Source: Escherichia phage vB_EcoM_ASO2A. From it: a stretch of 64,000 bases of DNA. Shown here piece after piece: positions 5,111 through 61,233 of the stretch (position 1 is the first letter of the stretch; every line of letters begins with the position of its first letter). Under the pieces are notes generated by a model. That model did no database searches. It had not been told where the DNA came from and saw only the letters and a program-made list of their open reading frames with translations. The translations under genes were made by a program, and so were the position numbers. The stretch lies in the sequence record MZ726793.1; one strand, 5' to 3'.

Positions 5111-5120
5111 GATTATACAA

Positions 5121-5148: not shown

Positions 5149-6659
5149 CCTAAATAATGTTGATAGATTCCGCCTATGGAAAACCGACACAGAACAAAAC
5201 TGAATAAATAGCGGTATCGAGCTAATCAACCATTAAACGAATAACCATACCTCCCAGGGTAACAGGCTGTTAGAGAGCCATTTAGAGCGGTTAAAATCGA
5301 TCAACAACCAACAACAAACCATCAAAAACACCCTTTTACCTCCTTTCTAGTGCAATGATAACCATTATCATCTATCCATGTTTATCTATGCAATATAAGT
5401 GCATAACTATAATGTTGATAATAGTTCGCAACAACTAACTAACCAACAACCTAAAACAATAAGCAAACTAATCATAATCAAAGGAATAATAGCAAGATGA
5501 TTGATAACGACAAACAATCAAACTATGATGAATACTAAGCAAGATAACGATAATACGACAAAACAACCAACTAACGAACAATAACAAACGAAACCATTAA
5601 AATAATAACTATTAGCAAAATAGTGCCTGAATGAAATCATTACAAAACGAATCATTCACAGGATCATCATTAGCACGCTATGCCGGACACATAGCGAGCT
5701 AATAATAAGCCAACTACACCCCAACAATCATAACCATCGGTGATGGTTATTTCTTGTTACTGCGTAGCTTGCAATAATTGCAAGCGTAATACGCTTACAC
5801 TTATTGCGCTGGCTTATTATTAGCATTATATGTAATTACCAAGATCATAACATTAGCGCAATAACAATAATCATTGTGGTAATTACAAGATGAAATCATT
5901 AGCAAGATGAATAATTGCACGTAGCAACATGAGCGAATAGCGACAGGTTGCATAGTGTGCACATAGATGTACACGCAGTGTATAAACATACAAGAAAATA
6001 AAGGCTAATCTTTCGGGGGCGAATACTATCGCGTAGCGATATGTTGAGCATCTTCTCTTAAACGTAAATAAAATCAGAAAATTCTTGATTTATTTTAGTT
6101 TTTATGTTAATAAACGTTTAAATAATAATCATTCTCATATAAATAATAGTCTGCTTGTCATGAGCGGGATCAGTTGACAATGTTCCGTCATATGATGAAG
6201 TTGCCAAACCATTGATAAATAAGTGTTTGTGTGATTTATAATCAAGTGGCCCACCTTGTCGCTATGTTGGCATGAGCCTTGCATAAGTCCTTGAATACGA
6301 ATGATAATTATTCTCATTCTCATGATATTTGGGAATTGTCGCTGCGTGGACCTGACGGCCCGAAAATTCGCGTTAAGCACTTCTTACGTATGCGCCATGA
6401 TTTTTGCCATATGATATTGATTCTATTAGATATTCTTGCCATGATTGCCATGAAACAGGGTGTCCCGAAATAATCTCTCCCCGTAGATATTTTGGGTTAC
6501 TTTTTATACAAGAGTGGGGTGTCAAAAATAATCGGTATATATGGGATAATTGATAGGAATCCCCTATGATAATTCGATTGTAATTCCCTGAGATTGATCG
6601 TATGATGTTGGTGATTGATGATTGCCATGAAAGATGGCTAACGATGAGAGGAGATTATC
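5141..6659. repeat. 1.5 kb non-coding A-rich region with short direct repeats
   Basis: No ORF with RBS; top strand A-rich and G-poor; repeated ATTAGCAAGATGA, GATTGCCATGAAA and ATCATTCTCAT motifs. Confidence 0.5.
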
Positions 6660-7034
6660 ATGCAAGAGAGTAAAAATGTTCCGTTGAGTAGTGCAACATT
6701 GCTTCGCTTCTATAAAGCATGGATTGCCAACTATCCTGCAATGAATCGCACAACGAGTGGCTTATGTGGTTGTCTGGTGGATTATGTAGATGATTTTGTT
6801 GGTGAGACAACTAGAGAAGAAGATAGAAAATGGCGGGATAGTTTGTTGGACCGTTTGAAATATGAAATGAGGAAACAATTTACATGTGCAGGGCTGGACT
6901 ACAATCTTCCGTTCAATGCAGATTGCATGGATTACCTTTCAGAGTGTATAAACTTGGCGTGTCATACCAACACGTTACGTCTTCAATGGGTGAAAGACAG
7001 AATTGAAGATGCAAATAATGCTTGCATTGAATAA
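6660..7034 (+). CDS. hypothetical protein, paralog family A (GLC...WVKDR)
   Basis: 124 aa; SD GAGGAG; shares FY..W, GLCxxL, PF and R.xWVKDR motifs with five other ORFs. Confidence 0.6.
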   Translation: MQESKNVPLSSATLLRFYKAWIANYPAMNRTTSGLCGCLVDYVDDFVGETTREEDRKWRDSLLDRLKYEMRKQFTCAGLDYNLPFNADCMDYLSECINLACHTNTLRLQWVKDRIEDANNACIE

Positions 7035-7093
7035 AGATGTTTGTATAATGGTTTGCATACCGCGCATAACAGATAGCCAATGAGGAGATTGAA

Positions 7094-7303
7094 ATGTCAA
7101 ATATGAAAACTGTATCCTTGTATTTAGCTAACACTGATCGTGTGCACACCCTTGCTAACGCAAGTCGTGTACTCGTGCAGTTTCGAAACTTCGCACCGTC
7201 CGTTGTGACAGGTAGTGAAACGTGTGTTATCGATTTCATTAACGAATACTTCCGAGGGAATCCGGTTGGTCGTTATTTCATTAAGGGTCTGAAGGATGCA
7301 TAA
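7094..7303 (+). CDS. hypothetical protein
   Basis: 69-aa ORF; SD GAGGAG. Confidence 0.55.
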   Translation: MSNMKTVSLYLANTDRVHTLANASRVLVQFRNFAPSVVTGSETCVIDFINEYFRGNPVGRYFIKGLKDA

Positions 7304-7304
7304 T

Positions 7305-7526
7305 ATGAAACGCATGAAAATTCGTATTGAGAATGATGGTGGTTATAAAGGATTGGCACATGCAAAATTTCCACTTGTGCTGGAAGCTACGGTGGAATAC
7401 AGTGGGCTTGCTCATGTGCGATTCTCGAAGATGATGGAAGTGCAGGAATGGTTTTGGGACGAGATAGATGCACGAGAAGGAGAAGATTATGTTTTCTTTC
7501 CTCACGAATATGAAATTGTCTATTAA
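7305..7526 (+). CDS. hypothetical protein, paralog family B
   Basis: 73 aa; SD AAGGA; C-terminal EW..W..EG.DYVFF shared with 11243..11464. Confidence 0.55.
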   Translation: MKRMKIRIENDGGYKGLAHAKFPLVLEATVEYSGLAHVRFSKMMEVQEWFWDEIDAREGEDYVFFPHEYEIVY

Positions 7527-7538
7527 AGGTTGTGTGCA

Positions 7539-7778
7539 ATGATCACACCACAGCAAAACGAAGCAGCAATGGATCTTCTTGATAGTTTGTATTTCGATAA
7601 TTGGTATTCTGAATGTGAATGGATGAATATGCAAACTCTGAAAGAGAAGACAAAAGCGTTGATTACAGTAGATCAATTTCTTGCAGAGACGGAAAGAATG
7701 AATTATGATATGGCATCTCGCGCACGACGCGTTTCCATTTTCAATAAAATGTTAGCATTATGGGGAGGTAGAAAATGA
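7539..7778 (+). CDS. hypothetical protein
   Basis: 79 aa from ATG 7539. Confidence 0.5.
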   Translation: MITPQQNEAAMDLLDSLYFDNWYSECEWMNMQTLKEKTKALITVDQFLAETERMNYDMASRARRVSIFNKMLALWGGRK

Positions 7779-8236
7779 GACAATTCACTATACTGGCAGC
7801 TTATGTGCAATGTGTTCACGATTATGTTAGTGCTCATACAGGTTTGCTGGAAGTTAATAGTAAAATTGAAGGCAATATGGGTACTGTCTATGTGCAACAT
7901 ACTTTATCCAATGTGCCGTTTAAAGTGTTCACTGTTGTAGCTGCCGATTACAATCGTGTAGATGTACGTTTCTTGGATCATAATTTTCGTAACGCACTAG
8001 ATAATATCGAAGATTATCTTCCCGTGAAACCTTTGTCATTTCCACCAAGTCGTGCAAATAATGTAGTGACAAACCTTAATGAAAGGAATGTGGCTATGCA
8101 CAAAAAAGTCCGTCAACTGAAAACGCTGATGGAAATGCAAGAAGAGATTGAAAAAGAACTAAAAGAAGATTTTGGTATGCTTCCAAAAGACGCTTTGAAA
8201 TGGTATGATGAACTAAGAGGAGAAAGTTATGAATAA
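7775..8236 (+). CDS. hypothetical protein
   Basis: 153-aa ORF; SD GGAGG; overlaps neighbours by 4 and 8 nt. Confidence 0.55.
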   Translation: MRQFTILAAYVQCVHDYVSAHTGLLEVNSKIEGNMGTVYVQHTLSNVPFKVFTVVAADYNRVDVRFLDHNFRNALDNIEDYLPVKPLSFPPSRANNVVTNLNERNVAMHKKVRQLKTLMEMQEEIEKELKEDFGMLPKDALKWYDELRGESYE

Positions 8237-8423
8237 AGGAACTACTGTATATTTAGTAACAAAGAATACCCCAGGCTGGAGCCAATGCAGCACTGTCCCT
8301 TACAAGATCTGTGCAACATTAGAACTAGCACAACGTGCAGAAGCAGAAGTGGATGCCATGCAATACAGCTATGGTGAGATCATTCCTTTTACTCTTGAAC
8401 AAGAAGGAGCATACAATGTTTAA
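8229..8423 (+). CDS. hypothetical protein (tandem paralog D)
   Basis: 64 aa; SD AGAGGAG; shares a W.VV...F.S.EEA motif with the C-termini of the next two ORFs. Confidence 0.55.
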   Translation: MNKGTTVYLVTKNTPGWSQCSTVPYKICATLELAQRAEAEVDAMQYSYGEIIPFTLEQEGAYNV

Positions 8424-8871
8424 AGTAGGGATTACTTATAAATTCAAAAGCGTTGCTGACCAAGGAGATATGGCAACACATGACAAAGCAAATATTGCTG
8501 TTTGCCAAGCGATTGGAAACGAAGTTTTCAAAGTTATGAATACAGATGATAAGTATGGTCATGTTCTTGAGTTTTATATCAATGGTACCCTCTATACAGC
8601 AGGTGTTACCCCAGGGTTTAATTCGTATACTTATTTGATTGATAACGAAGAATTTAAATATTTTGAAGAAGTAAAGGAGGAAACAATGGGTAAAGCAGAA
8701 CCACAATGGCATGTTGTGATCGTAGGATCAGAGTGTGTAGATGTTTGTTCTAGTTTTGAAAAAGCTTCTGAAGTAGCTACAAAAGCTAAGAAGGATTATC
8801 CGTCGAAGACGGTTGAGATTTACGCTCGTGTTGCAGTAGCAAACGCCACAATCACTATTGATAAGGAGTAA
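8416..8871 (+). CDS. hypothetical protein (tandem paralog D)
   Basis: 151 aa from ATG 8416; N-terminal MFKVG..Y.FK shared with neighbours. Confidence 0.55.
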   Translation: MFKVGITYKFKSVADQGDMATHDKANIAVCQAIGNEVFKVMNTDDKYGHVLEFYINGTLYTAGVTPGFNSYTYLIDNEEFKYFEEVKEETMGKAEPQWHVVIVGSECVDVCSSFEKASEVATKAKKDYPSKTVEIYARVAVANATITIDKE

Positions 8872-8876
8872 AGCCA

Positions 8877-9332
8877 ATGTTCAAAGAAGGTCATGTCTAC
8901 CGTTTCCAGGATGAAGATTATATGCGACTATATTCTACCTTTGATAACAGTATTGCGGCTATCATCGGAGAGAATTTTTTCGAGGTGTTGAGCACTGATG
9001 CAAATGGTAATATCTTGTCAATTGTTGTGATAGGGAGAGACGGTATTATCACTGCTAGTGATGGGGATCGTTACATAATCAATTCTGCTCATATAGATTA
9101 TTTTGTTGACGGTGGTATTCGTGGTGGTCGTGGAAAACCCCAAGAAGAACCTGTTGATACAACAAAAGAAGAGTGGTATGTTGTAATGACTGATGACACC
9201 TGTATTTCTGGGTTTGAAAGTTATGAAGAAGCTTTGAAAGAGGCAGCAGAGCATAAAATGTCTAATCCTACAGAAGAGGTTGAAGTTTATAAACGTTTGG
9301 TTGTTGCTACCATCGGCGTATCTTTTGTTTAA
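8877..9332 (+). CDS. hypothetical protein (tandem paralog D)
   Basis: 151-aa ORF; SD AAGGAG. Confidence 0.55.
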   Translation: MFKEGHVYRFQDEDYMRLYSTFDNSIAAIIGENFFEVLSTDANGNILSIVVIGRDGIITASDGDRYIINSAHIDYFVDGGIRGGRGKPQEEPVDTTKEEWYVVMTDDTCISGFESYEEALKEAAEHKMSNPTEEVEVYKRLVVATIGVSFV

Positions 9333-9344
9333 AAGGGGAATGTT

Positions 9345-9782
9345 ATGTTTAAAGTTAATGCTGTTTATTGTTTCAAAAGTAAAGCTGCCTGTGAAGCTTT
9401 CTCTATGATCTCTGATGAAAATTTCAAAATGGCAGCTTTGATTGAAGGGTCTTGTTTCCGCGTCGAGGATGTTAGTGAATCAGGGTCTGTTTGCTCATTG
9501 ATTTTATTGGACAGCGGGGATATTATTGAAGCTGGACAGTATCCGTTCAGAAGTTGGGAGATATTGTTAGCTCGCGGAGAGCGTAACTTTTTTATGTGCG
9601 TGTCTGCGGGGGAAGTTGTGAAAGAAACTAAGGATGTTTCTGTTTACAATTCTGAATTTATAAGTTATAGTGAGTATCAACATCTGGAAGGCATTGTTGG
9701 TCACTTGTTATCTCTGATTGACATTGAATGTGACCTGCCTGAATCATTGAAAGAAGAGTTGAAAGCATTAGATTTGTTATAA
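9345..9782 (+). CDS. hypothetical protein (tandem paralog D)
   Basis: 145-aa ORF; N-terminal MFKVNAVYCFK. Confidence 0.55.
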   Translation: MFKVNAVYCFKSKAACEAFSMISDENFKMAALIEGSCFRVEDVSESGSVCSLILLDSGDIIEAGQYPFRSWEILLARGERNFFMCVSAGEVVKETKDVSVYNSEFISYSEYQHLEGIVGHLLSLIDIECDLPESLKEELKALDLL

Positions 9783-9809
9783 TGTTTCGCACAACGAAAG
9801 GAGAATAAG

Positions 9810-10109
9810 ATGAATCTGACCGAACAGTTACGCCGTATTGCAAAAGAAGCTTCCTTCAACTTCCCTGTTGAAGAAGTGATCGAGACATGTTTTGCTGAAG
9901 CACGAGCGGGGAATTCTTCAAGAAATTTCACACCATCTGATTTTGGTCTGGATAATTCCCCTACCCACCCAGGGGCGATCTACAATCAGGTGAAGTGGAT
10001 GGATGAAGCAGTAGCAATTCTTCGTGAGCGTGGGCTTATTGTTTATAAAGAAATGGATCTGAACGGGGCATACGAGTGGATCACTATTGATTGGTCCGAG
10101 GTGAAATGA
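9810..10109 (+). CDS. hypothetical protein
   Basis: 99-aa ORF; SD AAGGAG. Confidence 0.55.
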   Translation: MNLTEQLRRIAKEASFNFPVEEVIETCFAEARAGNSSRNFTPSDFGLDNSPTHPGAIYNQVKWMDEAVAILRERGLIVYKEMDLNGAYEWITIDWSEVK

Positions 10110-10342
10110 TGAAAGGTAACAAGATGAAAGTTAATCAAGTGCCGAGCGCATACACTTTGTGGCTTGCGCGAGCGTTACACCAGACGATCAAAGACCCTAA
10201 GAAGCCAATGAAGAGTGGGAAGAAGTTTATGTCTAAGGGCAAAACAACCTTTGGCTTCACTCGTATGTCTGTTAAGATGAAAAGGCTGGGGTACAAGCCA
10301 AACTACGCTCGTTACCCTTCTGAATACAACTGGTTTGACTAA
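10106..10342 (+). CDS. hypothetical basic protein
   Basis: 78 aa, lysine-rich; SD GAGGTG. Confidence 0.5.
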   Translation: MMKGNKMKVNQVPSAYTLWLARALHQTIKDPKKPMKSGKKFMSKGKTTFGFTRMSVKMKRLGYKPNYARYPSEYNWFD

Positions 10343-10355
10343 AAGGAGAAAGACT

Positions 10356-10532
10356 ATGGCTACTTTTCAACAACTGAAAGATGTTTCACGTTTAGTAAGA
10401 AAAATCCGAGAAGCAGACGCTGCTGTGCGGAATGCATTAACGCCAGCAGAGCGTGAAGATCTTGAAGAGGAGGTGAAAACAGCCGAGAATGCTTTTGCTG
10501 TGTATCTTTCAACACTGTATACAGGAGGTTAA
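10356..10532 (+). CDS. hypothetical protein
   Basis: 58 aa from ATG 10356; SD AAGGAG. Confidence 0.5.
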   Translation: MATFQQLKDVSRLVRKIREADAAVRNALTPAEREDLEEEVKTAENAFAVYLSTLYTGG

Positions 10533-10847
10533 ATGTCAGAAGAACTTAAAGAATTTTATCAAGCATATCATAACTGGCTGTTAGCTGGTGCTCCTGATAA
10601 TAATCCTTTCTGGCATGATAAAGGATTATGTAGTTGCCTCTACCTTTGGACTGGAGGTTATGATGATCTAAATTATGAAATGCAAATGCAATTCCGTGAG
10701 GCAGGATTGTCTGAAGAATACCCGTTTGATGACGGAGACTGGTTTAAATATGATTTTGCACAAAGAAACGGGCTGCTACATTTGAATGCTGCCCGTATAA
10801 AATGGGTAAAAGATCATGCTACACAGGAGGATGTGCAATGCCAATAG
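10533..10847 (+). CDS. hypothetical protein, paralog family A
   Basis: 104 aa; family A motifs (FY..W, GLC, PF, RIKWVKDH). Confidence 0.6.
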   Translation: MSEELKEFYQAYHNWLLAGAPDNNPFWHDKGLCSCLYLWTGGYDDLNYEMQMQFREAGLSEEYPFDDGDWFKYDFAQRNGLLHLNAARIKWVKDHATQEDVQCQ

Positions 10848-11038
10848 TGTTTAGTTTCTTGGTGATTGTTATGGTTGTTCTTTTCGCGGCATGGCTTTGG
10901 GATTTTGACCCAGGAGCAGCGCAGCAAAGAGCTACAGACTGGAAAGAACAATGTATTGTGCTCAAACATGAACGAAATGCGGAGAAATTTCTTGACCTGG
11001 AGTGTGATCGCCTTGTAAGATACAAGCAAGATAAATAA
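10838..11038 (+). CDS. small membrane protein
   Basis: 66 aa from ATG 10838; SD AGGAGG; one TM helix. Confidence 0.5.
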   Translation: MPIVFSFLVIVMVVLFAAWLWDFDPGAAQQRATDWKEQCIVLKHERNAEKFLDLECDRLVRYKQDK

Positions 11039-11052
11039 CCTTGAGGTGCAAA

Positions 11053-11241
11053 ATGGTAATTGAGATTAAACTTGAATATGCTGGGGCTGTTGCCCTGATC
11101 GCACAAATGTTGGGAGCAAAGATTGAAGAAGTGTGTATCAATGCCTGGAGTGTAGAGATTAATGTTCCTATGGATAACATTGCTAATCGCTTGCTGGTAG
11201 CAGAGTGTGAACGCACCAACATAATCTACAAAGGAGCATAA
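11053..11241 (+). CDS. hypothetical protein
   Basis: 62 aa; SD GAGGTG. Confidence 0.5.
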   Translation: MVIEIKLEYAGAVALIAQMLGAKIEEVCINAWSVEINVPMDNIANRLLVAECERTNIIYKGA

Positions 11242-11242
11242 T

Positions 11243-11464
11243 ATGAAAATTAGAGTTTGTGATGTATTGGGTTATGTTGGTTTTGAGAATGTTCAGATTC
11301 CTTTTGTTGTTGAAGCACATCTTGTTAGCGATGACATGACAACATTCTTTGTTACGATAGAAGAAATGTCCAAAGTTGAGGGATGGGAGTGGTTTGAAGA
11401 AGATGTTTGGGAAGGTTGTGATTACGTATTTTTCTCTGACGAAGTGAATATTCTTGCGGAGTAG
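11243..11464 (+). CDS. hypothetical protein, paralog family B
   Basis: 73 aa; SD AAAGGAG; C-terminal motif shared with 7305..7526. Confidence 0.55.
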   Translation: MKIRVCDVLGYVGFENVQIPFVVEAHLVSDDMTTFFVTIEEMSKVEGWEWFEEDVWEGCDYVFFSDEVNILAE

Positions 11465-11466
11465 GT

Positions 11467-11673
11467 ATGTCTTGTTTTACAAAAGCAGTGTCCATATGTA
11501 AGAAACAATATGAAAGTGATTACGGAATATTTAATATTCCAGTAGATCATACAGAGTATTGTTCATGTGGTGGCAGAATGAAGAAAACAGTGATTTATGC
11601 GGATAATGGAGATGAACTTGTTCCGGTTGTGGTTTGCAAAGCTTGTCATTCTGTTAAAACATTAAAAGCGTAA
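11467..11673 (+). CDS. putative zinc-ribbon protein
   Basis: 68 aa with CSCGG...CKAC cysteine pairs. Confidence 0.5.
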   Translation: MSCFTKAVSICKKQYESDYGIFNIPVDHTEYCSCGGRMKKTVIYADNGDELVPVVVCKACHSVKTLKA

Positions 11674-11768
11674 GGAGTCGGGACACCCGACGATTGGAGC
11701 TAAAAATTTTGCGTACAACCCTTTCCGCCCAACAGGGGCGCGTCGGGTAAGTAAAGAGGAGAGTTTAT

Positions 11769-12167
11769 ATGAAAAAGATCATCGTAGGTTTCTTGTTACT
11801 CATTGCATCACTTGGAACAGCAAATGCGTCTCAAGTTTATGAGTGTGTGTCAGATGTGGTTGTTAAAAATCTGAAAGGTGAAGTGATTTCTGGTCCTAAG
11901 AAAATGGCTTCTGTTGTCATTAATAAAGATAACTCCTTTATCCTTAAAAATTCAGGTGGTGCTTTGATGAGTGGCATTCTGCAATACACAGGAGAAAAAA
12001 GTAAAGATGGTAGTGCTATGTATGGTTCACAACAGTTTATTGGCACTACTGAAGTTGTGATGATGCGCACAGAGTATCGAGACACTTTAGCTTGGTTTGC
12101 ATTTCTAAAAAATGATAAAACAATAACGAATGTTCTTACTCTAGAAGCTGATTGTACGCAACGATAA
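11769..12167 (+). CDS. secreted protein with signal peptide
   Basis: 132 aa; N-terminal MKKIIVGFLLLIASLGTANA; SD AGAGGAG. Confidence 0.6.
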   Translation: MKKIIVGFLLLIASLGTANASQVYECVSDVVVKNLKGEVISGPKKMASVVINKDNSFILKNSGGALMSGILQYTGEKSKDGSAMYGSQQFIGTTEVVMMRTEYRDTLAWFAFLKNDKTITNVLTLEADCTQR

Positions 12168-12177
12168 GGGGGGATTT

Positions 12178-12633
12178 ATGACTAAAATGAGACATTACGC
12201 TGTAAACTGCAACGATGCTTGGCGTTTGTGTCCTGATGATCCGACAGAAGGCACATTTGTAAGATATGAGGATTATAAAGAGTTATCGGATGCTGTAATC
12301 GCATTGTTAACTGATATCCGTTCACGTTATCCAGGACAAGATTTCACTTGCCCTCACATCAAACTTCTTGCTTGCCTGGTAGAAGGTGAGAAAGAAGTGG
12401 AAGATGGCTTCAAGCGTGTAGAGTATCAAGGTGAAACTTTAGATGTTCCTGAATTTGTTAATTATATTGCAACAGATTCAAGTGGCGAGCGTTATGGTTA
12501 CACTCATAAACCGGAGATTCCAGATTTCGCTTATGCGTGGCGTATTCCTTATGAAGTTTTTAATGTTGCAGATTGCTGGTATTTAGGAGAAGGAAACAAC
12601 CTTAATTGGCGTGATTCCTTGTTTCAGGTTTAA
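12178..12633 (+). CDS. hypothetical protein
   Basis: 151-aa ORF; SD GGGGGG. Confidence 0.55.
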   Translation: MTKMRHYAVNCNDAWRLCPDDPTEGTFVRYEDYKELSDAVIALLTDIRSRYPGQDFTCPHIKLLACLVEGEKEVEDGFKRVEYQGETLDVPEFVNYIATDSSGERYGYTHKPEIPDFAYAWRIPYEVFNVADCWYLGEGNNLNWRDSLFQV

Positions 12634-12637
12634 CAAT

Positions 12638-12901
12638 ATGAAAGAGACATTGCCAGCAGCATACCGTTTGAATGATGAACGTATTTGGGAGTGGACCGAC
12701 GTTTCTTGTTTTTACCCTGAAATAGTTCAATATTGGCGAGCAAAAGGGTGTGTTGTAGTTATCAACCCATGTGGACCAGTCGATGAAGATTGCTTGTATC
12801 TCGATGGAAAGTGGCACAGTTATTGTCGCTGGCCTTTTGAGTGGATGTGTAAAGAAGATCTCCCAGAGGGTTGGGAGTATCCAAAAGCAAATAGGAGATA
12901 A
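12638..12901 (+). CDS. hypothetical protein
   Basis: 87 aa from internal ATG; weak RBS. Confidence 0.4.
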   Translation: MKETLPAAYRLNDERIWEWTDVSCFYPEIVQYWRAKGCVVVINPCGPVDEDCLYLDGKWHSYCRWPFEWMCKEDLPEGWEYPKANRR

Positions 12902-12902
12902 T

Positions 12903-13265
12903 ATGTCTAAAGATTTTGTTGAAATGTTTGTCAAAGATGAAGAAACTGGTTTAGGCACAGGTTTCATTTGTGAAGAAACCTTTAAACGTGAACAAGAAAA
13001 AGCTATTCTTATGCGAAACTATGATCACGCATTAGAACAATGGAAAAATGCAGAACAAAAATGCAAAAACCTTTATGCAGAAAATAGAAAACTACAAGAT
13101 CAAATGGAGTTGTTAGCTATCAGTTTACGATCTCTCATTTTGGCTGTAGAAGATGGTTTTAAAAATCCAGATGGTTTTCCTGTGAGCGATATTGAACATG
13201 ATTTGTATCTTGCTCGTGGTGCTTACTTCTATGTTAAACAGAAGTCTGTAGAAGGAGAGAAGTGA
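12903..13265 (+). CDS. hypothetical protein
   Basis: 120 aa from ATG 12903; SD AGGAG. Confidence 0.5.
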   Translation: MSKDFVEMFVKDEETGLGTGFICEETFKREQEKAILMRNYDHALEQWKNAEQKCKNLYAENRKLQDQMELLAISLRSLILAVEDGFKNPDGFPVSDIEHDLYLARGAYFYVKQKSVEGEK

Positions 13266-13462
13266 TGGAAGAAAAACTGGAACGTATTATCGAGTTAGCC
13301 ATGTCTATTGGCTACGACGATTGTTTTCTCCAAACTATTGGAGAAACAGAGAACGATTACGACTCTTGGGTGAAAGAGTTGGAAGAACTTAAAACTTCCT
13401 TGATTGCTGACTTTGCTAAAGCAGAGGATAAAGCAGATCGTTACAACTATCTGTGTCGATAA
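13262..13462 (+). CDS. hypothetical protein
   Basis: 66-aa ORF; ATGA overlap with upstream gene. Confidence 0.5.
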   Translation: MMEEKLERIIELAMSIGYDDCFLQTIGETENDYDSWVKELEELKTSLIADFAKAEDKADRYNYLCR

Positions 13463-13465
13463 ACC

Positions 13466-13494
13466 TTGACATTTATTTTATGTATGGTATACAT
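13466..13494 (+). promoter_or_regulatory. sigma70-like promoter overlapped by a palindrome
   Basis: TTGACA, 17 nt, ATACAT; inverted repeat ATGTATG-GTATA-CATACAT across the -10. Confidence 0.45.
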
Positions 13495-13524
13495 ACATTA
13501 TCAACGTGAGCAAGGTGGTGTAAT

Positions 13525-13797
13525 ATGAATAAAGATCGGTTTCTTTCTTTAGTCGCGGAAGCTCCTTTTGATGTTCTTGGGGTGAGATTATGGAAAGACA
13601 GAAACTATGGGTTAGATGTTCAAACATACTCTCTTTGGTTGGTTGGGGAGCACAGCTTAGATGAAAGCTTGTGCATGGGTAGGGATTCTCGTTCCCTCTG
13701 TTTAAAGTTCAGAAGCTTAGAACGCGCAAACAAAGAGCAAGAAAAACTAACGAGGTGGCTAAATGAAAACAAGCGCAAGGTTGATGGAGTTTTATAA
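13525..13797 (+). CDS. hypothetical protein
   Basis: 90-aa ORF; SD AAGGTGG. Confidence 0.55.
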   Translation: MNKDRFLSLVAEAPFDVLGVRLWKDRNYGLDVQTYSLWLVGEHSLDESLCMGRDSRSLCLKFRSLERANKEQEKLTRWLNENKRKVDGVL

Positions 13798-14089
13798 AAT
13801 TTATCTAGCATGGATTGATGTTGGTGCTCCTGATGGTAAACCTTTTCGGCGGGATTGCGGTTTGTGTGCCAACTTATTCGACTATGTGCACGCGGATGGC
13901 TACAATCCCCTTATAACAACCTTGTCAGATGAAATGCACGCACAGTTTTACCACAAAGGGTTAAGTCAAGAATTACCCTTCAATGAGAACTACGATGCAT
14001 ATGTCTTAGAATCAGATGCAGAGGTATGTCACCTGAATGTGGACAGGATTAATTGGGTAAGAGATCGTATTGCAGAGGAGGATGAATAA
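13763..14089 (+). CDS. hypothetical protein, paralog family A
   Basis: 108 aa; family A motifs; overlaps upstream gene. Confidence 0.55.
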   Translation: MKTSARLMEFYKIYLAWIDVGAPDGKPFRRDCGLCANLFDYVHADGYNPLITTLSDEMHAQFYHKGLSQELPFNENYDAYVLESDAEVCHLNVDRINWVRDRIAEEDE

Positions 14090-14316
14090 TGTCGGATTAT
14101 AACTGGTATGAACTTGAGGCTGTTTGTCAGTTTTATGACTCAATAGTTCTGCGTGATCCAATCTGTCAAGAATTGAGTCGCCGTGCAAGTGCATTGGCAA
14201 TCCGTGTTAAAATAAACGGTTGGAACGCAGATTTGGAAAAAGAGTTGGAATTTCTCTTAGAAAACACGCGGGTCTTCCGCAAAGTGTTCCCTGAATGGTT
14301 TGAGATGGAAGAATGA
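14089..14316 (+). CDS. hypothetical protein
   Basis: 75-aa ORF; start overlaps upstream stop. Confidence 0.5.
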   Translation: MSDYNWYELEAVCQFYDSIVLRDPICQELSRRASALAIRVKINGWNADLEKELEFLLENTRVFRKVFPEWFEMEE

Positions 14317-14531
14317 TCATGTGGATTGTGCGTCTTAAGTATGATGGCAAGTTTCCGTGGGAGAAAGATGTTTGTGCTTGTGATTCGGCAGCACATGCCA
14401 AAGCAGCGGGTCAGGCAGTAGTTGACATGTATAACAACACTTCCGTTGATCCAGAAATGGCAGGTGTTACAATGAGCATGTTCACTTACTATTCTTTTGA
14501 GGTTTACTATCATGAAGGAGAGTGGAAATGA
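14313..14531 (+). CDS. hypothetical protein
   Basis: 72-aa ORF; ATGA overlap. Confidence 0.5.
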   Translation: MIMWIVRLKYDGKFPWEKDVCACDSAAHAKAAGQAVVDMYNNTSVDPEMAGVTMSMFTYYSFEVYYHEGEWK

Positions 14532-14848
14532 GCGAAGAACTATTAACATTTTACCGCACGTATTTGGCATGGTTGGAAGCTGGTGCTCCTGAAGGCGAAC
14601 CGTTCACCCGTTGCACAGGTTTGTGCTCGAACCTCTATGATTTTTACGATATGGGTGAAAGCGAACGATACGAACCCGTACTGGATGAAATGCATGAGCA
14701 GTTCTACCGCAAAGGTTTGGTTATGGTGTTGCCTTTCAACAGTAATTTTGGAAAGTACACCTTAGAAGCGGAAAAAAGCCGCTGTCACTTGAATGTGGAT
14801 CGTGTGAACTGGGTAAAAGAACGTGTAGCAGAAGAAATAATTGGTTGA
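14522..14848 (+). CDS. hypothetical protein, paralog family A
   Basis: 108 aa; closest paralog of 13763..14089. Confidence 0.6.
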   Translation: MEMSEELLTFYRTYLAWLEAGAPEGEPFTRCTGLCSNLYDFYDMGESERYEPVLDEMHEQFYRKGLVMVLPFNSNFGKYTLEAEKSRCHLNVDRVNWVKERVAEEIIG

Positions 14849-14902
14849 CAGAGGGATCTATCTTTGTCATAATCATCTCATCGAAACAGAGAGGAGAGAA
14901 TC

Positions 14903-15316
14903 ATGAAAAAGTTTATTTGCACCCGTTCCACTAACAGTGATATCCTTGTAGGTAAGGTTATCAAAGGAGAACTCTTCCATGCAAACGGTAAGAAATATAT
15001 TCTGCTGAAAGATTCTTTCAACGGGGAATATCCGCGCTGCACTTTCTTCAATTACAACACTCCATTTGCTTTAGAAGGAGATGCTTGGGATTGGGCTGAA
15101 CTCAATCCTTGTTGTGAGGAAGAAGAATCTATGTTCTTAGGTTTAAACGTTTACCGTGTAGATTACACCATGTGCGGAGCGGAACATTCTGTTCGCGTAG
15201 AAGCCGAATCCAAGCTACAAGCACCTTTCAAGGCGGGATTGACTTTGGGTCATTGTTTGGCAAACATTGAAGATGTTGTGATCCAAAGAGTTGTTTTAGA
15301 GAAAGAGGCTATTTGA
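14903..15316 (+). CDS. hypothetical protein
   Basis: 137-aa ORF; SD GAGAGGAGAG. Confidence 0.55.
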   Translation: MKKFICTRSTNSDILVGKVIKGELFHANGKKYILLKDSFNGEYPRCTFFNYNTPFALEGDAWDWAELNPCCEEEESMFLGLNVYRVDYTMCGAEHSVRVEAESKLQAPFKAGLTLGHCLANIEDVVIQRVVLEKEAI

Positions 15317-15369
15317 CAGAAAACGGTGCAATATTTAAAATATAAAGATTAACCACAAAAGGAGAGAAA

Positions 15370-15669
15370 ATGCAAGTTGAAGACCTGATCCAGATTCTAA
15401 ATAAAGCCAAAGAGAAGGGTGCTATCAAAGACTGGAAACGTGAAACGAGTGAAGACCTATCTCACTGTTGCCGAGAATTTTACATCGAAGGTATTGCTGA
15501 CGATCATTATATTATCGAATGGTATATCAACTTAATGACTCTTAAGCACGGTTCGTTTGAGGTTTGGTTTGATGACATTGATGTAAATGGTTTTCATCCT
15601 GGCTATAAAATCGCTATGCAGTTATCTTATCGTAGAGAAGTTGTAGCACATTTGGGTTTACATAACTAA
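15370..15669 (+). CDS. hypothetical protein
   Basis: 99-aa ORF; SD AAAAGGAGAG. Confidence 0.55.
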   Translation: MQVEDLIQILNKAKEKGAIKDWKRETSEDLSHCCREFYIEGIADDHYIIEWYINLMTLKHGSFEVWFDDIDVNGFHPGYKIAMQLSYRREVVAHLGLHN

Positions 15670-15679
15670 GGAGAAAAGA

Positions 15680-16003
15680 ATGCAAGCAGTTGTTAACGAA
15701 GCTATTATGAACTTATCCTTCTTGTTAGCTGGTTTAGGAGGTGTTCTCATAGGTTTGGCTCTTATCTGGTGTATTCGTCGATTAGTCGGGTACCGACAAA
15801 AAGGTGTTTCATGTTTTGTATCTTACAATTTTACAACTGCTTACAGCAATGAGGTTGGATCTGGCAATGCTCAAGCATTTTTACCAACATATCCTCCTAC
15901 GGTGGAAGATATTCGAAACTTGGAAGTAGAACTTATGGGACTAAGTGATAACTATACATCTCTAGTTATTCAAAATATTTTTCGACTAAAACAGGGGGCG
16001 TGA
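15680..16003 (+). CDS. membrane protein
   Basis: 107 aa; SD AAGGAG; TM helix LLAGLGGVLIGLALIWCI. Confidence 0.55.
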   Translation: MQAVVNEAIMNLSFLLAGLGGVLIGLALIWCIRRLVGYRQKGVSCFVSYNFTTAYSNEVGSGNAQAFLPTYPPTVEDIRNLEVELMGLSDNYTSLVIQNIFRLKQGA

Positions 16004-16216
16004 ATGAAGGTACATTACCCTCATCCGTTTGATCCTAAAAACAAAGCCGTAATTCTTCGTCAGTGGCAACGGGTTTGTCGTACTAAATGTCCAATCAATA
16101 GCCCACACAATGTAGACAAGGACTATCTTGGGACATTTGTTGAATACACTTACATAGACAAAAACAAGCGTAAACAACATGTCGAGGAATACTGCTTAAG
16201 AGTAGAATGGCTGTAA
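16004..16216 (+). CDS. hypothetical protein
   Basis: 70-aa ORF immediately after upstream stop. Confidence 0.5.
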   Translation: MKVHYPHPFDPKNKAVILRQWQRVCRTKCPINSPHNVDKDYLGTFVEYTYIDKNKRKQHVEEYCLRVEWL

Positions 16217-16228
16217 ATAATAAATACC

Positions 16229-16257
16229 TTGACAAATGTTTATTCGTTTTGTAAAGT
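16229..16257 (+). promoter_or_regulatory. sigma70-like promoter upstream of recombinase
   Basis: TTGACA, 17 nt, TAAAGT; near-palindrome AATAAA..TTTATT around the -35. Confidence 0.45.
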
Positions 16258-16286
16258 GAGAATACAGCAATGGTTTAGGAGTGGTT

Positions 16287-16958
16287 ATGAAAAAGTTTGT
16301 TGTTTACAGTCGTCTTTCTAAACAGAAAAAAGGTGAGGCACAATATGGTATGGAGAGCCAAGAGAACGATATCCGTTACTTCTTAGACTCTGTACCTGAT
16401 GCGGAAGTTATTGGTCAATTTTCTGAATACTATTCGGGTAAGGGCGATTGGAAGCAACGTAAGGAACTGGTTAAAGCGGTTGAAATGTGTAAAGCTACCG
16501 GAGCAACTTTATTGGTAGCTAAAGTTGACCGCTTGGGTCGTAACAACGCCTCCGTAGCAACTCTTCTAGAAATGATCGATGTTAAGATAGCCATCATGCC
16601 AGACGCAGATAAAATGGTTATACAGCTTCTGTCTGTTCTGGCTGAACAAGAAGTTAGAGGTATTGCTGATCGTATTAAAAAGGGTCTTGCTGTAGCAAAA
16701 AGCAAAGGTGTTTTATTAGGCAGTGCTAATCCTAAAACTGCCGCTGCACGTAGAAAAGGAAAAATGGAATACAACTCTGTTAAAGCAGACGCTTTTGCAG
16801 AGACATTCCGTGAACGTTTGGAGATCCTTAGAGATTTAAATACACCTTACAAAACTATTGCTGAAAAATTCAATAGTAAGAAAATAGCAACAGCACGTGG
16901 TGGTAAATGGGATGCTAAAACTGTTTCTCGTTTGTGTGCCAGACTGAACATTAAATAG
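16287..16958 (+). CDS. serine recombinase (resolvase/invertase family)
   Basis: 223 aa from ATG 16287; N-terminal VVYSRLS...Q with LLVAKVDRLGRN, C-terminal HTH-like region. Confidence 0.7.
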   Translation: MKKFVVYSRLSKQKKGEAQYGMESQENDIRYFLDSVPDAEVIGQFSEYYSGKGDWKQRKELVKAVEMCKATGATLLVAKVDRLGRNNASVATLLEMIDVKIAIMPDADKMVIQLLSVLAEQEVRGIADRIKKGLAVAKSKGVLLGSANPKTAAARRKGKMEYNSVKADAFAETFRERLEILRDLNTPYKTIAEKFNSKKIATARGGKWDAKTVSRLCARLNIK

Positions 16959-16966
16959 GAGAGGAT

Positions 16967-17389
16967 ATGAAACAAGAAAATGAATCTGTAGATCACTTAA
17001 TCATGCTGTCAGCCCTTTTTGCCGGATGGGACGTATTTTTTGAAAATTTGTTCAATTCTGCTACAGATGGTTCCGATTTTATGCGCCAGTTTAAACGACG
17101 AACTGTTGAGGACTATGCTTTCTATTCAGGTCGGATTGAAAAAGGTTACGAAGATACAAATACAACACTCACCATTAAAGTTTTAGATGTGATGTTTAGT
17201 GTTATAGATGCTATCGACGAAAGTCTTCCGATCCTAGATAATTGTAATACGAAAGTCTATGTTTACAAAATAGCTCGTGCTTATGTGTCTGCAAACAGTT
17301 GTCTTCTTTCCACCCAGATTGCCGTGAACAATCTTGCCAACTTGTTTGATGAAGGAGAAACTTTTTATGACAATCGATTTGAAGTGTAA
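16967..17389 (+). CDS. hypothetical protein
   Basis: 140-aa ORF; SD AGGAGAGG. Confidence 0.55.
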   Translation: MKQENESVDHLIMLSALFAGWDVFFENLFNSATDGSDFMRQFKRRTVEDYAFYSGRIEKGYEDTNTTLTIKVLDVMFSVIDAIDESLPILDNCNTKVYVYKIARAYVSANSCLLSTQIAVNNLANLFDEGETFYDNRFEV

Positions 17390-17732
17390 GAGGATTCTTT
17401 TAGATTTCTATAATAATTGGTTAGAACACCTCCGGCTCTTTCCAAGAGAAAGTGGTTACGCTGATGTTGGCTTATGCCGAGGTCTACGTATGTATATAAG
17501 TGATGAATTTCGGGCCGAGCATTCTTTAGCATATTCTGTTTATGGTATGCAATTAGCCAGTTTTGAAAACGCTGGCTTAGATACAACTTTCCCATTTAAC
17601 ACAGCAAAATCTTTTGAGCAAGAGTGTAAGGAAAAACGTTGCATGTTTAATGAAAAACGTGTACAGTGGGTTAAGGATCGAGTTAAACAACTGGAACAAG
17701 AGTTGGATTTCTTCTATGATGAGGCAGAATAA
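17367..17732 (+). CDS. hypothetical protein, paralog family A
   Basis: 121 aa from ATG 17367; SD GAAGGAG; family A motifs. Confidence 0.55.
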   Translation: MTIDLKCKRILLDFYNNWLEHLRLFPRESGYADVGLCRGLRMYISDEFRAEHSLAYSVYGMQLASFENAGLDTTFPFNTAKSFEQECKEKRCMFNEKRVQWVKDRVKQLEQELDFFYDEAE

Positions 17733-18004
17733 TGGATAGACAAACCTTAAAAACAATGGCAGATGCCACTAATTCCCCGTACTTTGAAAAAGTAAGTAAA
17801 TTGGTAGCTCAAGCCGCAGAGGAAGGATATTATAACATAAACATCCACAACCCAAGTCTTATACTAGAAATGCCAAGTGATAAGAAGATACAAGAGAGTA
17901 TCTGTGAAGGTATTGTTAGTTACTGGCGCGAGCGTGGGTGTGGTGCAAACATGGCTTTAGACAGTGCAAACATTGTAAGATATATAAATATTTCTTGGGG
18001 GTGA
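17732..18004 (+). CDS. hypothetical protein
   Basis: 90-aa ORF. Confidence 0.5.
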   Translation: MDRQTLKTMADATNSPYFEKVSKLVAQAAEEGYYNINIHNPSLILEMPSDKKIQESICEGIVSYWRERGCGANMALDSANIVRYINISWG

Positions 18005-18008
18005 TTTT

Positions 18009-18620
18009 ATGATTCAATGCACTCATATCCAAATTACTTGGAGAGATGAACTTTACCATTTGGGACAATTTACTGTAGGGGAAACATACCCTGTCATTAA
18101 ACATAATCCTAACATCGCAAACTTTGATAGGATGGTTCTTGTTGAGGACGATCTGGGTCAAACTTATTCTTTAGATCTAAAATATCCGTTTTCTTACGGC
18201 TACGATTGGATCGTTACTTTTGAAGACGTGGAGGAAAATAAAACAATGAACGAAAAAAATTCTTGGTATTATCGTTGTGAACTGCCGCCAGTAGGTGAAA
18301 AGGTTATCTTTGTTCCTGATTTGGAAAGATATTCTTGGGACAGTTCTTATTCTGTTCCTAAAGAAGGCACCGAAGTTGAAGTTATTGCACATCGCACGAC
18401 TTCGCATGGTAACGATGTAGCAGTTGTTTTCTGGGATGATGAAGGCGCTGCTTGTGCAGGTGGCTTTGTTGCAGGTAACTTTGAACCCCTGCCAGATCCT
18501 TTGAAGGAGGCAATTTTAGGCGTAGCTTCTTTTGGACTCTCTTACACGTCTGCACAGGAGATCGTAGAAGGTATTTTAAACGGTACTGTTCCAAACGAAA
18601 TTTTCAAACAGATTAAGTAA
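18009..18620 (+). CDS. hypothetical protein
   Basis: 203-aa ORF; hairpin CACCCCG-TTCT-GCGGGGTG follows stop. Confidence 0.55.
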   Translation: MIQCTHIQITWRDELYHLGQFTVGETYPVIKHNPNIANFDRMVLVEDDLGQTYSLDLKYPFSYGYDWIVTFEDVEENKTMNEKNSWYYRCELPPVGEKVIFVPDLERYSWDSSYSVPKEGTEVEVIAHRTTSHGNDVAVVFWDDEGAACAGGFVAGNFEPLPDPLKEAILGVASFGLSYTSAQEIVEGILNGTVPNEIFKQIK

Positions 18621-18671
18621 CAGTTGCACCCCGTTCTGCGGGGTGTTATTGTATATGTAAAGGAGGCGCTA

Positions 18672-19010
18672 ATGTATTACACTGAAGACTACATATTGTA
18701 TAACTTTTTTAAAGGTTGGTTGAAATGGGCGGAACAAGCTCCTGTCGGAGATTGTGTTTTTCCTTGGGATTCTCGTCAAGGCTTGTGTCGTTGTTTGGAA
18801 GATTGGCTTATAACCACAAACTACAATTCAGAAACTAAGAAATCTACATCAAACAGATTAAAAATGTTGTTTGAAGAAGATGGTTTAGATCCAATTTATC
18901 CTTTCGGTGAGGAAAGTTTCCACAATGGTCTTTTCCTTGGCACTCAACATTATGATAAAGATCGTGTAGATTGGGTAAAAGAAAAGGTAGCACAGTATGA
19001 ATGGGGTTAA
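18672..19010 (+). CDS. hypothetical protein, paralog family A
   Basis: 112 aa from ATG 18672; SD AAAGGAGG; family A motifs. Confidence 0.55.
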   Translation: MYYTEDYILYNFFKGWLKWAEQAPVGDCVFPWDSRQGLCRCLEDWLITTNYNSETKKSTSNRLKMLFEEDGLDPIYPFGEESFHNGLFLGTQHYDKDRVDWVKEKVAQYEWG

Positions 19011-20261: not shown

Positions 20262-20290
20262 TTGACAAACTCACAAAGCTTGTGTTACAT
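20262..20290 (+). promoter_or_regulatory. sigma70-like promoter
   Basis: TTGACA, 17 nt, TTACAT; followed by SD AGGAGGAAG and ATG 20329. Confidence 0.5.
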
Positions 20291-20328
20291 TGTGTCTCAC
20301 AAGTGAATAATACCGAACAGGAGGAAGA

Positions 20329-61231: not shown

Positions 61232-61233
61232 AC

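Follow-up and report, generated by a model that had tools for sequence, protein, structure and literature searches.

The window analysed here, a stretch of 64,000 nucleotides from Escherichia phage vB_EcoM_ASO2A (sequence record MZ726793.1), exhibited 97–98 % DNA identity to Phapecoctavirus genomes and is, by this measure, assigned to these phAPEC8-like E. coli myoviruses. Six plus-strand ORFs were shown to represent a family of related genes: copy 1 (6660..7034, 124 aa), copy 2 (10533..10847, 104 aa, the shortest), copy 3 (13763..14089, 108 aa), copy 4 (14528..14848, 106 aa), copy 5 (17367..17732, 121 aa) and copy 6 (18672..19010, 112 aa). All copies are confined to one 12 kb stretch of a block of small plus-strand genes, in which the intergenic gaps contain strong sigma70-like promoters. 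An earlier reading of the sequence alone had placed these genes in an early block, and this placement is consistent both with the promoters and with the location of N4 and T7-like relatives in the first-entering, early region of their genomes. From position, early (host-takeover class) status of the six genes is thus putative. All neighbouring genes are assigned to PHROGs of unknown function, and a conserved neighbour gene was not found around the six copies. A single pair of flanking genes (7296–7526 and 11243–11464, downstream of copies 1 and 2, respectively) was observed to be homologous. Apart from this pair, the flanking genes are not homologous to each other, by which a conserved partner gene or a toxin–antitoxin-like pairing was ruled out.

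The start codons of the six genes were assessed together with their ribosome-binding sites. Copy 1 begins with an ATG preceded by the Shine-Dalgarno sequence GAGGAG, carries a GLCGCL motif and encompasses the longest loop between helices 2 and 3; its locus holds one to three tandem copies in related phages. Copy 2 is preceded by AGGAGG, and its orthologs exhibited dN/dS values of 0.00–0.02. Copies 3 and 4 are 51 % identical, the former being missing from ZCKP1 and the latter from ESCO5 and ev052. For copy 4, the GTG at 14522 (yielding 108 aa) had been taken as the start, yet the ATG at 14528 is more likely, as it is preceded by the Shine-Dalgarno sequence GAAGGAGAG and as relatives are annotated at 106 aa. 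Conversely, the starts proposed for copies 5 and 6 proved to be right: ATG 17367 of copy 5, a protein with an acidic C-terminal tail, is preceded by GAAGGAGAA, while ATG 18672 of copy 6 follows AAGGAGG, and the alternative TTG at 18624 is disfavoured because it is covered by a terminator-like hairpin (18626–18646). Copy 6 is the most divergent member, with FF replacing FY. All six proteins are mildly acidic with a net negative charge (pI 4.5–5.3), and are therefore not basic nucleic-acid binders.

Although pairwise identity among the copies was as low as 25–51 %, their relationship was statistically robust, in agreement with the six-member paralogous family described previously. A profile of the six copies searched against the six-frame translation of the window retrieved exactly these ORFs (6660, 10533, 13763, 14528, 17367 and 18672) at E values of 1e-37 to 1e-44, with the next best match at 0.57. 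The robustness of the alignment, a check set beforehand, was confirmed by leave-one-out profiles, which regained each omitted copy at E values of 1e-16 to 1e-34, while unrelated ORFs scored no better than 0.036. A regular expression of the ordered motifs (F[YF]..[WY] ... GLC..L ... GL....PF ... R..WV) matched the six ORFs only, and was not matched once across 200 shuffles of the window. The motif order reported by the sequence-only reading is thus present in all six copies, whereas two of its motifs required adjustment: the W of 'FY..W' occurs in three copies only (Y in the other three), and 'R..WVKDR' is exact in just two copies, its general form being R..WV[KR][DE][RHK].

A family profile was built from 122 single-domain members, with membership defined by an end-to-end match and the motif order FY, GLC, EM..QF..GL....PF and R..WV. 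Copies 1 through to 6 matched this profile, here termed N4 gp3-like, at E values of 2e-28, 3e-30, 4e-37, 3e-36, 1e-26 and 2e-23, respectively. All six also matched the profile HMM of phrog_2510 over profile positions ~4–113 (E values of 2.7e-25 to 3.5e-32; 2.7e-25, 8e-29, 3.5e-32, 2.9e-26 and 7.9e-27 for copies 1, 2, 3, 5 and 6, respectively) as well as that of phrog_6418, while phrog_27059 was matched by four (copies 1, 3, 4 and 5); the family is therefore already catalogued at the level of clusters. Taken together, the homology statistics, the Shine-Dalgarno sites and the conserved orthologs with dN/dS values of 0.05–0.12 show that all six ORFs encode genuine proteins, which belong to a single ancient family of domains ~100 residues long. 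As stated before, this family is not a recognised one: no copy reached a family cut-off in Pfam-A, NCBIfam or PADLOC or matched a PDB entry, none of the 122 relatives matched any Pfam family at E≤0.01, and the same applied to ten longer, multi-domain relatives. A literature search retrieved no paper mentioning phrog_2510, phrog_6418 or phrog_27059.

The N4 gp3-like domain was shown to be widespread and to occur almost only in phages. An exhaustive profile search yielded 1,617 cluster representatives at E≤1e-3 (621 at E≤1e-10), so that the family comprises no fewer than 1,600 clusters when grouped at 50 % identity; a second, word-indexed homolog search with a large alignment returned no additional members. 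The named sources of these members are phages, almost without exception, and the few labelled 'Escherichia coli' reside on contigs of ~151–153 kb, a length expected of a complete phage genome. Of 72,556 plasmids, one produced a match, this being a P1-like phage-plasmid. By tblastn, 258 phage records including N4 were matched, and carriers encompass N4-like, T7-like, T1-like, phi92/rV5-like and jumbo phages. The family profile matched N4 gp3 end to end (E~1e-20), RSB1 ORF5 (E=1.7e-22) and SeSz-2 gp18 (E=3e-30). Homologs are kept near the left end of many N4-like phages, ORF5 of the T7-like phage RSB1 is located upstream of a 0.7-like kinase, and EmilieFrey, a phi92-like BASEL phage, encodes at least four copies. 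Some members are tandem fusions of two or three such domains, and in the longer relatives no informative domain fusion was seen, the additional sequence being either further copies of this domain or tails without annotation.

Structure prediction of copy 4, the only copy modelled, using AlphaFold2 produced a five-helix model (pLDDT 92.7, pTM 0.85), which was matched by BFVD models of 13 phage homologs (E≤1e-3, TM 0.76–0.87) from Rhizobium, Burkholderia, Achromobacter, Delftia, Klebsiella, Erwinia and Pectobacterium phages. The domain is thus predicted with high confidence to adopt a compact five-helix fold. The same pattern recurred in both halves of a modelled tandem member, which displayed two confident domains joined by a disordered linker (pTM 0.56); a fixed pseudo-dimer is accordingly unsupported, and the models suggest that the domains of tandem proteins are independent modules. 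Sequence and fold searches of the PDB retrieved no counterpart to the domain, and no likeness to Ocr, ArdA, Acb2, Tad1/2, AsiA, Gp2 or other solved anti-defence or host-takeover proteins; the fold search likewise gave no match to a DNA-binding fold that rose above noise.

Conservation was counted, in the numbering of copy 4, over 173 domains from representatives sharing at most 50 % pairwise identity. Near-invariant residues were C35 (172 of 173), R94 (173), P71 (173) and F72 (172), followed by the less strictly conserved N91 (155), Q60 (144), Y79 (143), E56 (139), E82 (126) and H89 (118). Across the family, the domain keeps its hydrophobic core, the residues capping its helices and a small number of polar positions that hardly vary (Cys35, Gln60 and Arg94). 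Free variation in both sequence and length is seen in the loop between helices 2 and 3 and in the two tails, and free variation in sequence at many helix positions outside the conserved hydrophobic pattern, which are putatively surface-located. In most tandem proteins, the conserved residues counted above are found in each half. Conservation of S4, N91, N73 and G33 can be explained by their role as helix caps. A structural zinc or metal mini-domain (CxC...CH; C35, C37, C88 and H89) was ruled out by co-occurrence counts, as all four ligands are present in six of the 173 domains, while 34 retain only C35.

To compare selection on the copies with that on their neighbours, dN/dS values were calculated (NG86, pooled by gene set) using orthologs from four close relatives. 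Pooled values were 0.114, 0.105, 0.115 and 0.052 for the family, as opposed to 0.157, 0.170, 0.135 and 0.147 for the other genes of the same block, placing the family at or below the neighbouring early genes. At the level of whole genes, positive selection was rejected, since per-gene and pooled values were far from 1 and not above those of the neighbours. The diversifying selection that had been suggested by the presence of six diverged copies was therefore not borne out, and it is further countered by the age of the paralogs (25–51 % identity) and by residues that are invariant in more than 170 domains of unrelated phages. Rather, sequence comparison showed each copy to be under purifying selection, and the copies to have arisen through old duplications and exchange. 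The existing variability lies in whole copies being gained, lost or replaced: six related genomes carry 5, 6, 6, 6, 7 and at least 10 copies, representing 16 copy types and confined to one 12 kb stretch of the early block. Individual copies are dispensable. The seven copies of phAPEC8 are all located within 7.0–19.3 kb, with none elsewhere in its 148 kb genome.

A host-takeover or anti-defence role of the six copies is plausible, if putative. The explanation we tentatively prefer, while rating it at somewhat below an even chance, is that the copies represent putative early accessory binding modules built on a conserved scaffold and employed in host takeover or counter-defence. The six genes would be transcribed early by the host RNA polymerase, and their products would be soluble accessory proteins of mildly acidic character that share a rigid scaffold, with the variable parts of each one binding a different component of the host or of its defences. 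This arrangement would account both for the presence of several diverged copies per genome and for the flexibly linked two- and three-domain fusions. This explanation is consistent with the per-column conservation across the 173 domains, the variable copy number and multiple copy types among relatives, the modelling of tandem proteins as two independent modules, and the acidic pI. However, the ~10 conserved polar positions (Cys at 99 %, Arg at 100 %) exceed what is usual for pure binding scaffolds, and their conservation across unrelated phages would suit an active site or a ligand site no less well. An arms-race interface would also not be expected to show purifying selection or orthologs that are nearly identical, and neither a conserved neighbour gene nor an informative domain fusion was found. 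The same polar residues underlie an alternative that we consider possible but doubtful, in which the domain would be a putative very small enzyme or a binder of a small molecule (a signal or metabolite). Cys35 and Arg94 would form its centre together with Gln60, Glu56, Glu82, Tyr79, His89 and Asn91, and the substrates or ligands recognised would vary among paralogs and fusions, by analogy with phage sponges or with Alt, ModA and ModB of T4. The near-complete retention of C35, R94, P71 and F72, the survival of conserved residues in both halves of most tandem proteins and the strongly purifying selection all agree with such a function, while the wide spread over unrelated families of Proteobacteria phages suggests a conserved, non-co-evolving target. 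Against this, the PDB holds no enzyme, sponge or nucleotide-binding protein similar in fold or sequence, helix capping by S4, N91, N73 and G33 accounts for several of the conserved polar residues, the 34 domains that keep only C35 exclude a metal site with four ligands as a trait of the family, and a strict Cys–His dyad is absent because His89 is only 68 % conserved. It is unlikely, in our estimation, that a new minimal fold binds or chemically acts on a conserved proteobacterial small molecule or signal via Cys35/Arg94, as a new sponge or mini-enzyme class; if true, the 5–10 paralogs and fusions would constitute a specificity panel at the very start of infection.

A service to the phage's own programme, with the copies acting, for example, as cofactors or regulators of early-to-middle expression or of replication, is considered improbable. 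Purifying selection, the retention of homologs near the left end of many N4-like phages and the location of N4 gp3 beside two N4 RNA polymerase II cofactors, gp1 and gp2 (PMC4496689), would suit such a function. The transcription and replication machineries of the carriers (N4-like, T7-like, T1-like, rV5-like and jumbo phages) are, however, entirely different, close relatives carry from 5 to at least 10 individually dispensable copies, the proteins are acidic, and DNA-binding folds were not matched above noise. DNA mimicry or another broad anti-restriction function of the Ocr/ArdA kind would be compatible with the early position and the net negative charge. In T7, it is Ocr (gene 0.3) that occupies the position upstream of the 0.7 kinase, which is the position of the RSB1 homolog. 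The domain is nevertheless structurally unlike Ocr, ArdA and any solved anti-restriction protein, and a pI of 4.5–5.3 is only mildly acidic; this is the least credible of the explanations and a very improbable one. Moreover, published plating data are reported to show exceptional restriction sensitivity of Vequintavirinae and relatives, including Phapecoctavirus as well as phi92-like and rV5-like phages (PMC8594841). The phi92-like EmilieFrey carries at least four copies. Broad anti-restriction activity of the six copies is unlikely because of this sensitivity, and since the group is reported to be sensitive to Fun/Z abortive infection as well, any counter-defence role of the favoured accessory binding modules would not be a broad one (PMC8594841).

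The family is large, nearly restricted to phages and absent from Pfam and the structure database, while being present in classic model phages (as N4 gp3) and in therapeutic-type coliphages. Its combination of a confidently predicted fold lacking a solved relative, Cys and Arg residues that are invariant in unrelated phage lineages and many copies in one early block is rare, and makes it a well-defined and cheap experimental target. Assigning a function to the domain could annotate thousands of 'hypothetical proteins' at once, and may bring to light either a host-takeover target or a ligand-binding fold that is new.

In comparison with known systems, phrog_2510, phrog_6418 and phrog_27059 are sequence clusters of 'unknown function' without a fold or description, and do not record the 5–10 copies per genome, the invariant residues or the fold prediction. 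N4 gp3 (YP_950481; NC_008720, 1214–1528; ~104 aa) belongs to the same domain family as the six copies and keeps the GLC, PFN, CHLN and R..W motifs. In the N4 genome, it lies at the left end, which is the first to enter the cell, flanked by the early genes gp2 and gp15 (PMC4496689). Its record name is just 'gp3', and a literature search under this name found no paper assigning it a function. In contrast to the six copies of ASO2A, which are presumably transcribed by the host polymerase, gp3 is present as a single copy, the virion RNA polymerase that N4 injects being responsible for its transcription. Phage sponges are normally single-copy, and their conserved residues would be dictated by a small-molecule ligand that does not change, as opposed to a protein partner that co-evolves. 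Acb2, Tad1 and Tad2 showed no sequence or fold similarity to the N4 gp3-like domain in PDB searches. The resemblance is one of analogy, these immune-signal sponges being small and widespread among phages, as is the domain (PMC12393519). A link to Atd1, a characterised small counter-defence protein (anti-TIR) reported from Phapecoctavirus (PMC11724313; bioRxiv 10.1101/2022.06.09.495361), was ruled out, as Atd1 is a MazG-like pyrophosphatase and none of the six copies matched MazG in Pfam. Dap1 and Dap2 of Pseudomonas phage PaoP5 are characterised small proteins with counter-defence or host-modulating roles (PMC13083879), encoded adjacently near one end of the genome record. Kinship with these proteins was rejected, since the family profile gave E>0.9 for PaoP5 orf003 and orf004, and none of its motifs occurs in either. 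In poxviruses, the Bcl-2-like proteins form a large set of diverged paralogs that share a compact fold made only of helices, each thought to engage a different host factor, and keep almost no sequence motifs. The N4 gp3-like copies may be regarded as analogous, being likewise diverged helical paralogs within one genome, albeit of a different fold and virus realm; unlike the poxvirus proteins, the N4 gp3-like family keeps invariant Cys, Arg, Pro and Phe residues.

The six homologous ORFs of the early block (copies 1 to 6; all + strand, at 6660..7034, 10533..10847, 13763..14089, 14528..14848, 17367..17732 and 18672..19010) could be aligned over their full length, with pairwise identities of 25-51% and sixteen invariant columns. 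A profile built from the six copies and searched against all stop-to-stop segments of at least 40 aa in six frames matched exactly these six (E 1e-37 to 1e-44; next match 0.57), and leave-one-out profiles regained the omitted copy at 1e-16 to 1e-34 (best unrelated ORF 0.036). A broader profile of 122 sequences again retrieved six copies, and no more, in the window. The ordered motifs by which the sequence-only reading had defined a six-member family were likewise specific, as the corresponding regular expression matched these six ORFs only and gave zero matches in 200 shuffled windows; that finding is real. A Shine-Dalgarno sequence was present 5-9 nt ahead of the ATG in all six copies. The coordinates proposed earlier were right overall, including those of copies 5 and 6, for which the Shine-Dalgarno-backed start is the ATG already chosen and not that of the longer TTG ORFs; the start of copy 4 probably lies at 14528 instead. 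That orthologs are conserved among related phages, at dN/dS values far below 1, indicates that the six copies are real genes.

The family had not been recognised from its sequence, and database comparison bore this out: no match reached threshold for the six copies in Pfam, NCBIfam or PADLOC, and none of 122 relatives matched any Pfam model. All six copies matched phrog_2510 (1e-25 to 1e-32) and, more weakly, phrog_6418, with four of them also matching phrog_27059; all three groups carry the annotation 'unknown function', and no paper mentioning any of them was found in the literature. The six genes are new members of a so far undescribed family that already exists in sequence-cluster databases (PHROG 2510), without a Pfam name or solved structure. 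Searched exhaustively with HMMER, 1.84 billion cluster representatives yielded 1,617 hits at E<=1e-3, 621 of them at E<=1e-10. Among the best 150 of the 1,617, most proteins were 100-125 aa in length, some carried the domain two or three times in tandem, and the named sources were phage 'hypothetical proteins'. Named members include phi92 gp006 and proteins of Klebsiella phage ZCKP1, Citrobacter phage Tr1 and Opt-719, and the Burkholderia jumbo phages BcepSaruman and BcepSauron encode two- and three-domain forms. With copy 3 as the query, tblastn matched 258 phage records, every host being within the Proteobacteria. Among them are N4 and N4-like phages, with matches situated 1-3 kb in from the left end, the T7-like Ralstonia phage RSB1, T1-like and other siphoviruses, and phi92/rV5-like myoviruses. 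Membership was confirmed by profile scores for N4 gp3 (~1e-20), RSB1 ORF5 (1.7e-22) and SeSz-2 gp18 (3e-30). For N4 gp3, the single literature search that specified it by name turned up no functional assignment. Among 72,556 plasmids a single match was observed, in a P1-like phage-plasmid.

AlphaFold2 modelling of copy 4 from a 17-sequence alignment (pLDDT 92.7, pTM 0.85) predicted five helices (residues 5-19, 34-41, 47-63, 76-84 and 92-107) with a short bridge ahead of helix 2. Foldseek found nothing significant among all PDB chains (best E 2.3, TM 0.33), and its matches in BFVD were all to uncharacterised phage members of this family (13 at E<=1e-3, TM 0.76-0.87). The fold was shown, at the level of the model, to be confidently predicted and without solved relatives. 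For the 231 aa two-domain relative of Citrobacter phage Tr1, two confident copies of the fold were predicted with a disordered linker between them (pTM 0.56); a fixed pseudo-dimer was rejected in favour of this putative beads-on-a-string arrangement.

Conservation was assessed across 173 domains, using copy-4 numbering. P71 and R94 occur in every domain, C35 and F72 in 172/173 each and G33 in 168/173, and L7, F10, Y11, L34, F61, W97 and V98 are kept in about 90% or more of the domains. L66 (150/173) and Q60 (144/173) follow at 83-87%, and S4, N37, E56, N73, Y79, E82, N91 and H89 (68%) are frequent. The conserved hydrophobic residues would fit a core in the model, a structural explanation for part of the set. 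S4, G33 and N91 immediately precede helices 1, 2 and 5, respectively, and the predicted secondary structure suggests that they act as helix caps; P71-F72 is placed in a loop. Such structural roles do not explain the invariant Cys and Arg or the conserved Gln, Glu and Tyr. A four-ligand metal site was rejected as a family feature, as 34/173 domains have only C35 among positions 35, 37, 88 and 89. The proteins are mildly acidic (pI 4.5-5.3). Variability was observed in both tails, the connector between helices 1 and 2, the helix 2-helix 3 loop (in which copy 1 exceeds copy 2 by 17 residues) and numerous helix positions outside the conserved hydrophobic pattern.

The window was compared with the genomes of SF1-1, ESCO5, phAPEC8_ev052, ZCKP1 and PsgM04F, and gene-level dN/dS (NG86), resting on these five genomes, ranged from 0.00 to 0.29 for individual family genes, plus one noisy value of 0.49. 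Pooled family values in the four close comparisons were 0.114, 0.105, 0.115 and 0.052, against 0.157, 0.170, 0.135 and 0.147 for the other 31-43 early-block genes, indicating that the copies are at least as constrained as their neighbours; the diversifying selection suspected earlier was accordingly contradicted.

What changes between relatives is gene content. ESCO5 carries five copies (lacking copy 4), and the window and SF1-1 carry six each. Six are also found in phAPEC8_ev052 (two at the copy-1 locus, without copy 4) and ZCKP1 (two at the copy-1 locus, without copy 3), and seven in phAPEC8 (two at the copy-1 locus). In the complete 148 kb genome of the latter, the 122-sequence profile placed all seven within 7.0-19.3 kb and none elsewhere. 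The largest repertoire seen was that of PsgM04F (OR584014.1, 3769-20901), with at least ten copies, three of them in tandem at the copy-1 locus. When clustered at 75% identity, the copies of six genomes fell into 16 types. The copy-1 locus lies at the left edge of the early block, adjoining a 1.2 kb stretch poor in ORFs, and holds one to three different copies in relatives; the closest ZCKP1 counterpart of copy 1 shares just 50% identity with it, whereas the gene 500 bp downstream is 100% identical. By these comparisons, the locus is a replacement hot spot.

PsgM04F is labelled a Pseudomonas coronafaciens phage, yet where its early block matches the window, the identity is 80-90% or more. Several 'Campylobacter' and 'Acinetobacter' phage records are also near-identical to this E. 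coli phage sequence, which suggests host mislabelling or contamination in public records.

The 14 kb around the copies show 96-98% DNA identity to Phapecoctavirus genomes (phAPEC8, vB_EcoM_DE16, ESCO5, Mt1B1_P17 and others). As GC skew and ORF orientation show, small genes on the + strand occupy the block between ~6 kb and 24 kb, and beyond it the genes of a long block lie on the - strand; in phAPEC8 this second block comprises nucleotide metabolism and replication genes. The A-rich, ORF-poor stretch (about 5400-6650) lies between upstream small genes and copy 1, falls where the GC skew changes near 6 kb and matches an unannotated gap in phAPEC8 (5512-7022). Four near-consensus sigma70-type promoter matches were located on the + strand, in short intergenic gaps at 14845-14873 (11/12, directly 3' of the copy 4 stop codon), 15313-15341 (11/12) and 16229-16257 (10/12), and in an ORF-free stretch at 20262-20291 (10/12) ahead of the gene at 20329; as sequence matches, they are consistent with several early transcription units using host polymerase. 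Strong terminator-like hairpins on the + strand, each with a 9 bp stem (6 G-C pairs) followed by a T-run, occur at 18626-18646, just upstream of the copy 6 ATG, and at 5119-5141, close to the upstream boundary of the ORF-poor stretch.

Mid-block, a serine recombinase gene (16281-16958, +; Resolvase N-terminal domain, PF00239, 5e-18) encodes a protein 100% conserved in all four close relatives compared (SF1-1, ESCO5, ev052 and ZCKP1), and is labelled 'DNA invertase', 'resolvase' or 'recombinase' in several records. In phAPEC8, the second gene of the - strand block (24129-24929, equivalent to ~23.9-24.7 kb of the window) is Sir2-like (NAD-dependent deacetylase family) and is kept in ESCO5, ev052 and PsgM04F, with a DNA methyltransferase gene close by. 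A cluster of ten tRNA genes (61157-63169, +; Met, Arg, Ser, Asn, Thr, Gly, Gln, Pro, Ile, Met) differs from the 11 annotated at the matching place in phAPEC8, which has an additional tRNA-Tyr between Ser and Asn.

Further paralogs were detected in the early block. Two + strand genes of 76 and 73 aa (7296-7526 and 11243-11464; 38% identity, E 1.8e-11), matching phrog_15322 and phrog_13367 (both of unknown function), lie two genes downstream of copy 1 and three genes downstream of copy 2, respectively, and may have been left by a segmental duplication in which a family copy was carried along. Three tandem + strand genes of ~150 aa each (8416-8871, 8877-9332 and 9345-9782), all beginning MFK..Y.F, constitute a third paralogous family. 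Each matches phrog_3710 and/or phrog_622 (unknown function), the sole Pfam match, of the first gene to DUF2782, stayed below threshold, and in one relative's record two of the three carry the labels 'goF mRNA metabolism modulator' and 'RNA metabolism moderator'.

Sequence comparison thus showed the copies to be real genes carrying one ancient, nearly phage-restricted domain, subject to purifying selection and repertoire turnover. By position, the family sits in early regions of three unrelated phage architectures (PMC4496689 among the sources). We tentatively favour the reading that its members would act early as accessory binding modules, with a separate host or defence component as the target of each. 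This reading would account for a conserved, rigid scaffold whose loops vary, for the coexistence of several diverged copies in one genome, for the flexible tandem fusions and for the accessory distribution of the genes, which are present in some relatives and absent from others. The main rival, considered less likely, is that the invariant Cys and Arg belong to a catalytic or ligand-binding centre; this would better explain why the family is conserved in phages of Alpha-, Beta- and Gammaproteobacteria and why arms-race signatures are lacking. A phage-internal regulatory role, which agrees with the neighbourhood of gp3 in N4, appears improbable given copy-number variation and the spread of the family over phages with unrelated machineries.

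A broad anti-restriction role is unlikely: in published plating data (PMC8594841), exceptional sensitivity to restriction-modification systems is described for Vequintavirinae and relatives, Phapecoctavirus and phi92-like phages among them. The BASEL phage EmilieFrey, of that sensitive group, carries at least four copies. Small early genes without a known role are common in large phages; this family stands out by its breadth, invariant Cys and Arg, orphan fold, presence in N4 and expansion up to ten copies. Atd1, the characterised Phapecoctavirus counter-defence protein, is a MazG-type enzyme, and the Dap1/Dap2 pair of PaoP5 is unrelated to the family.
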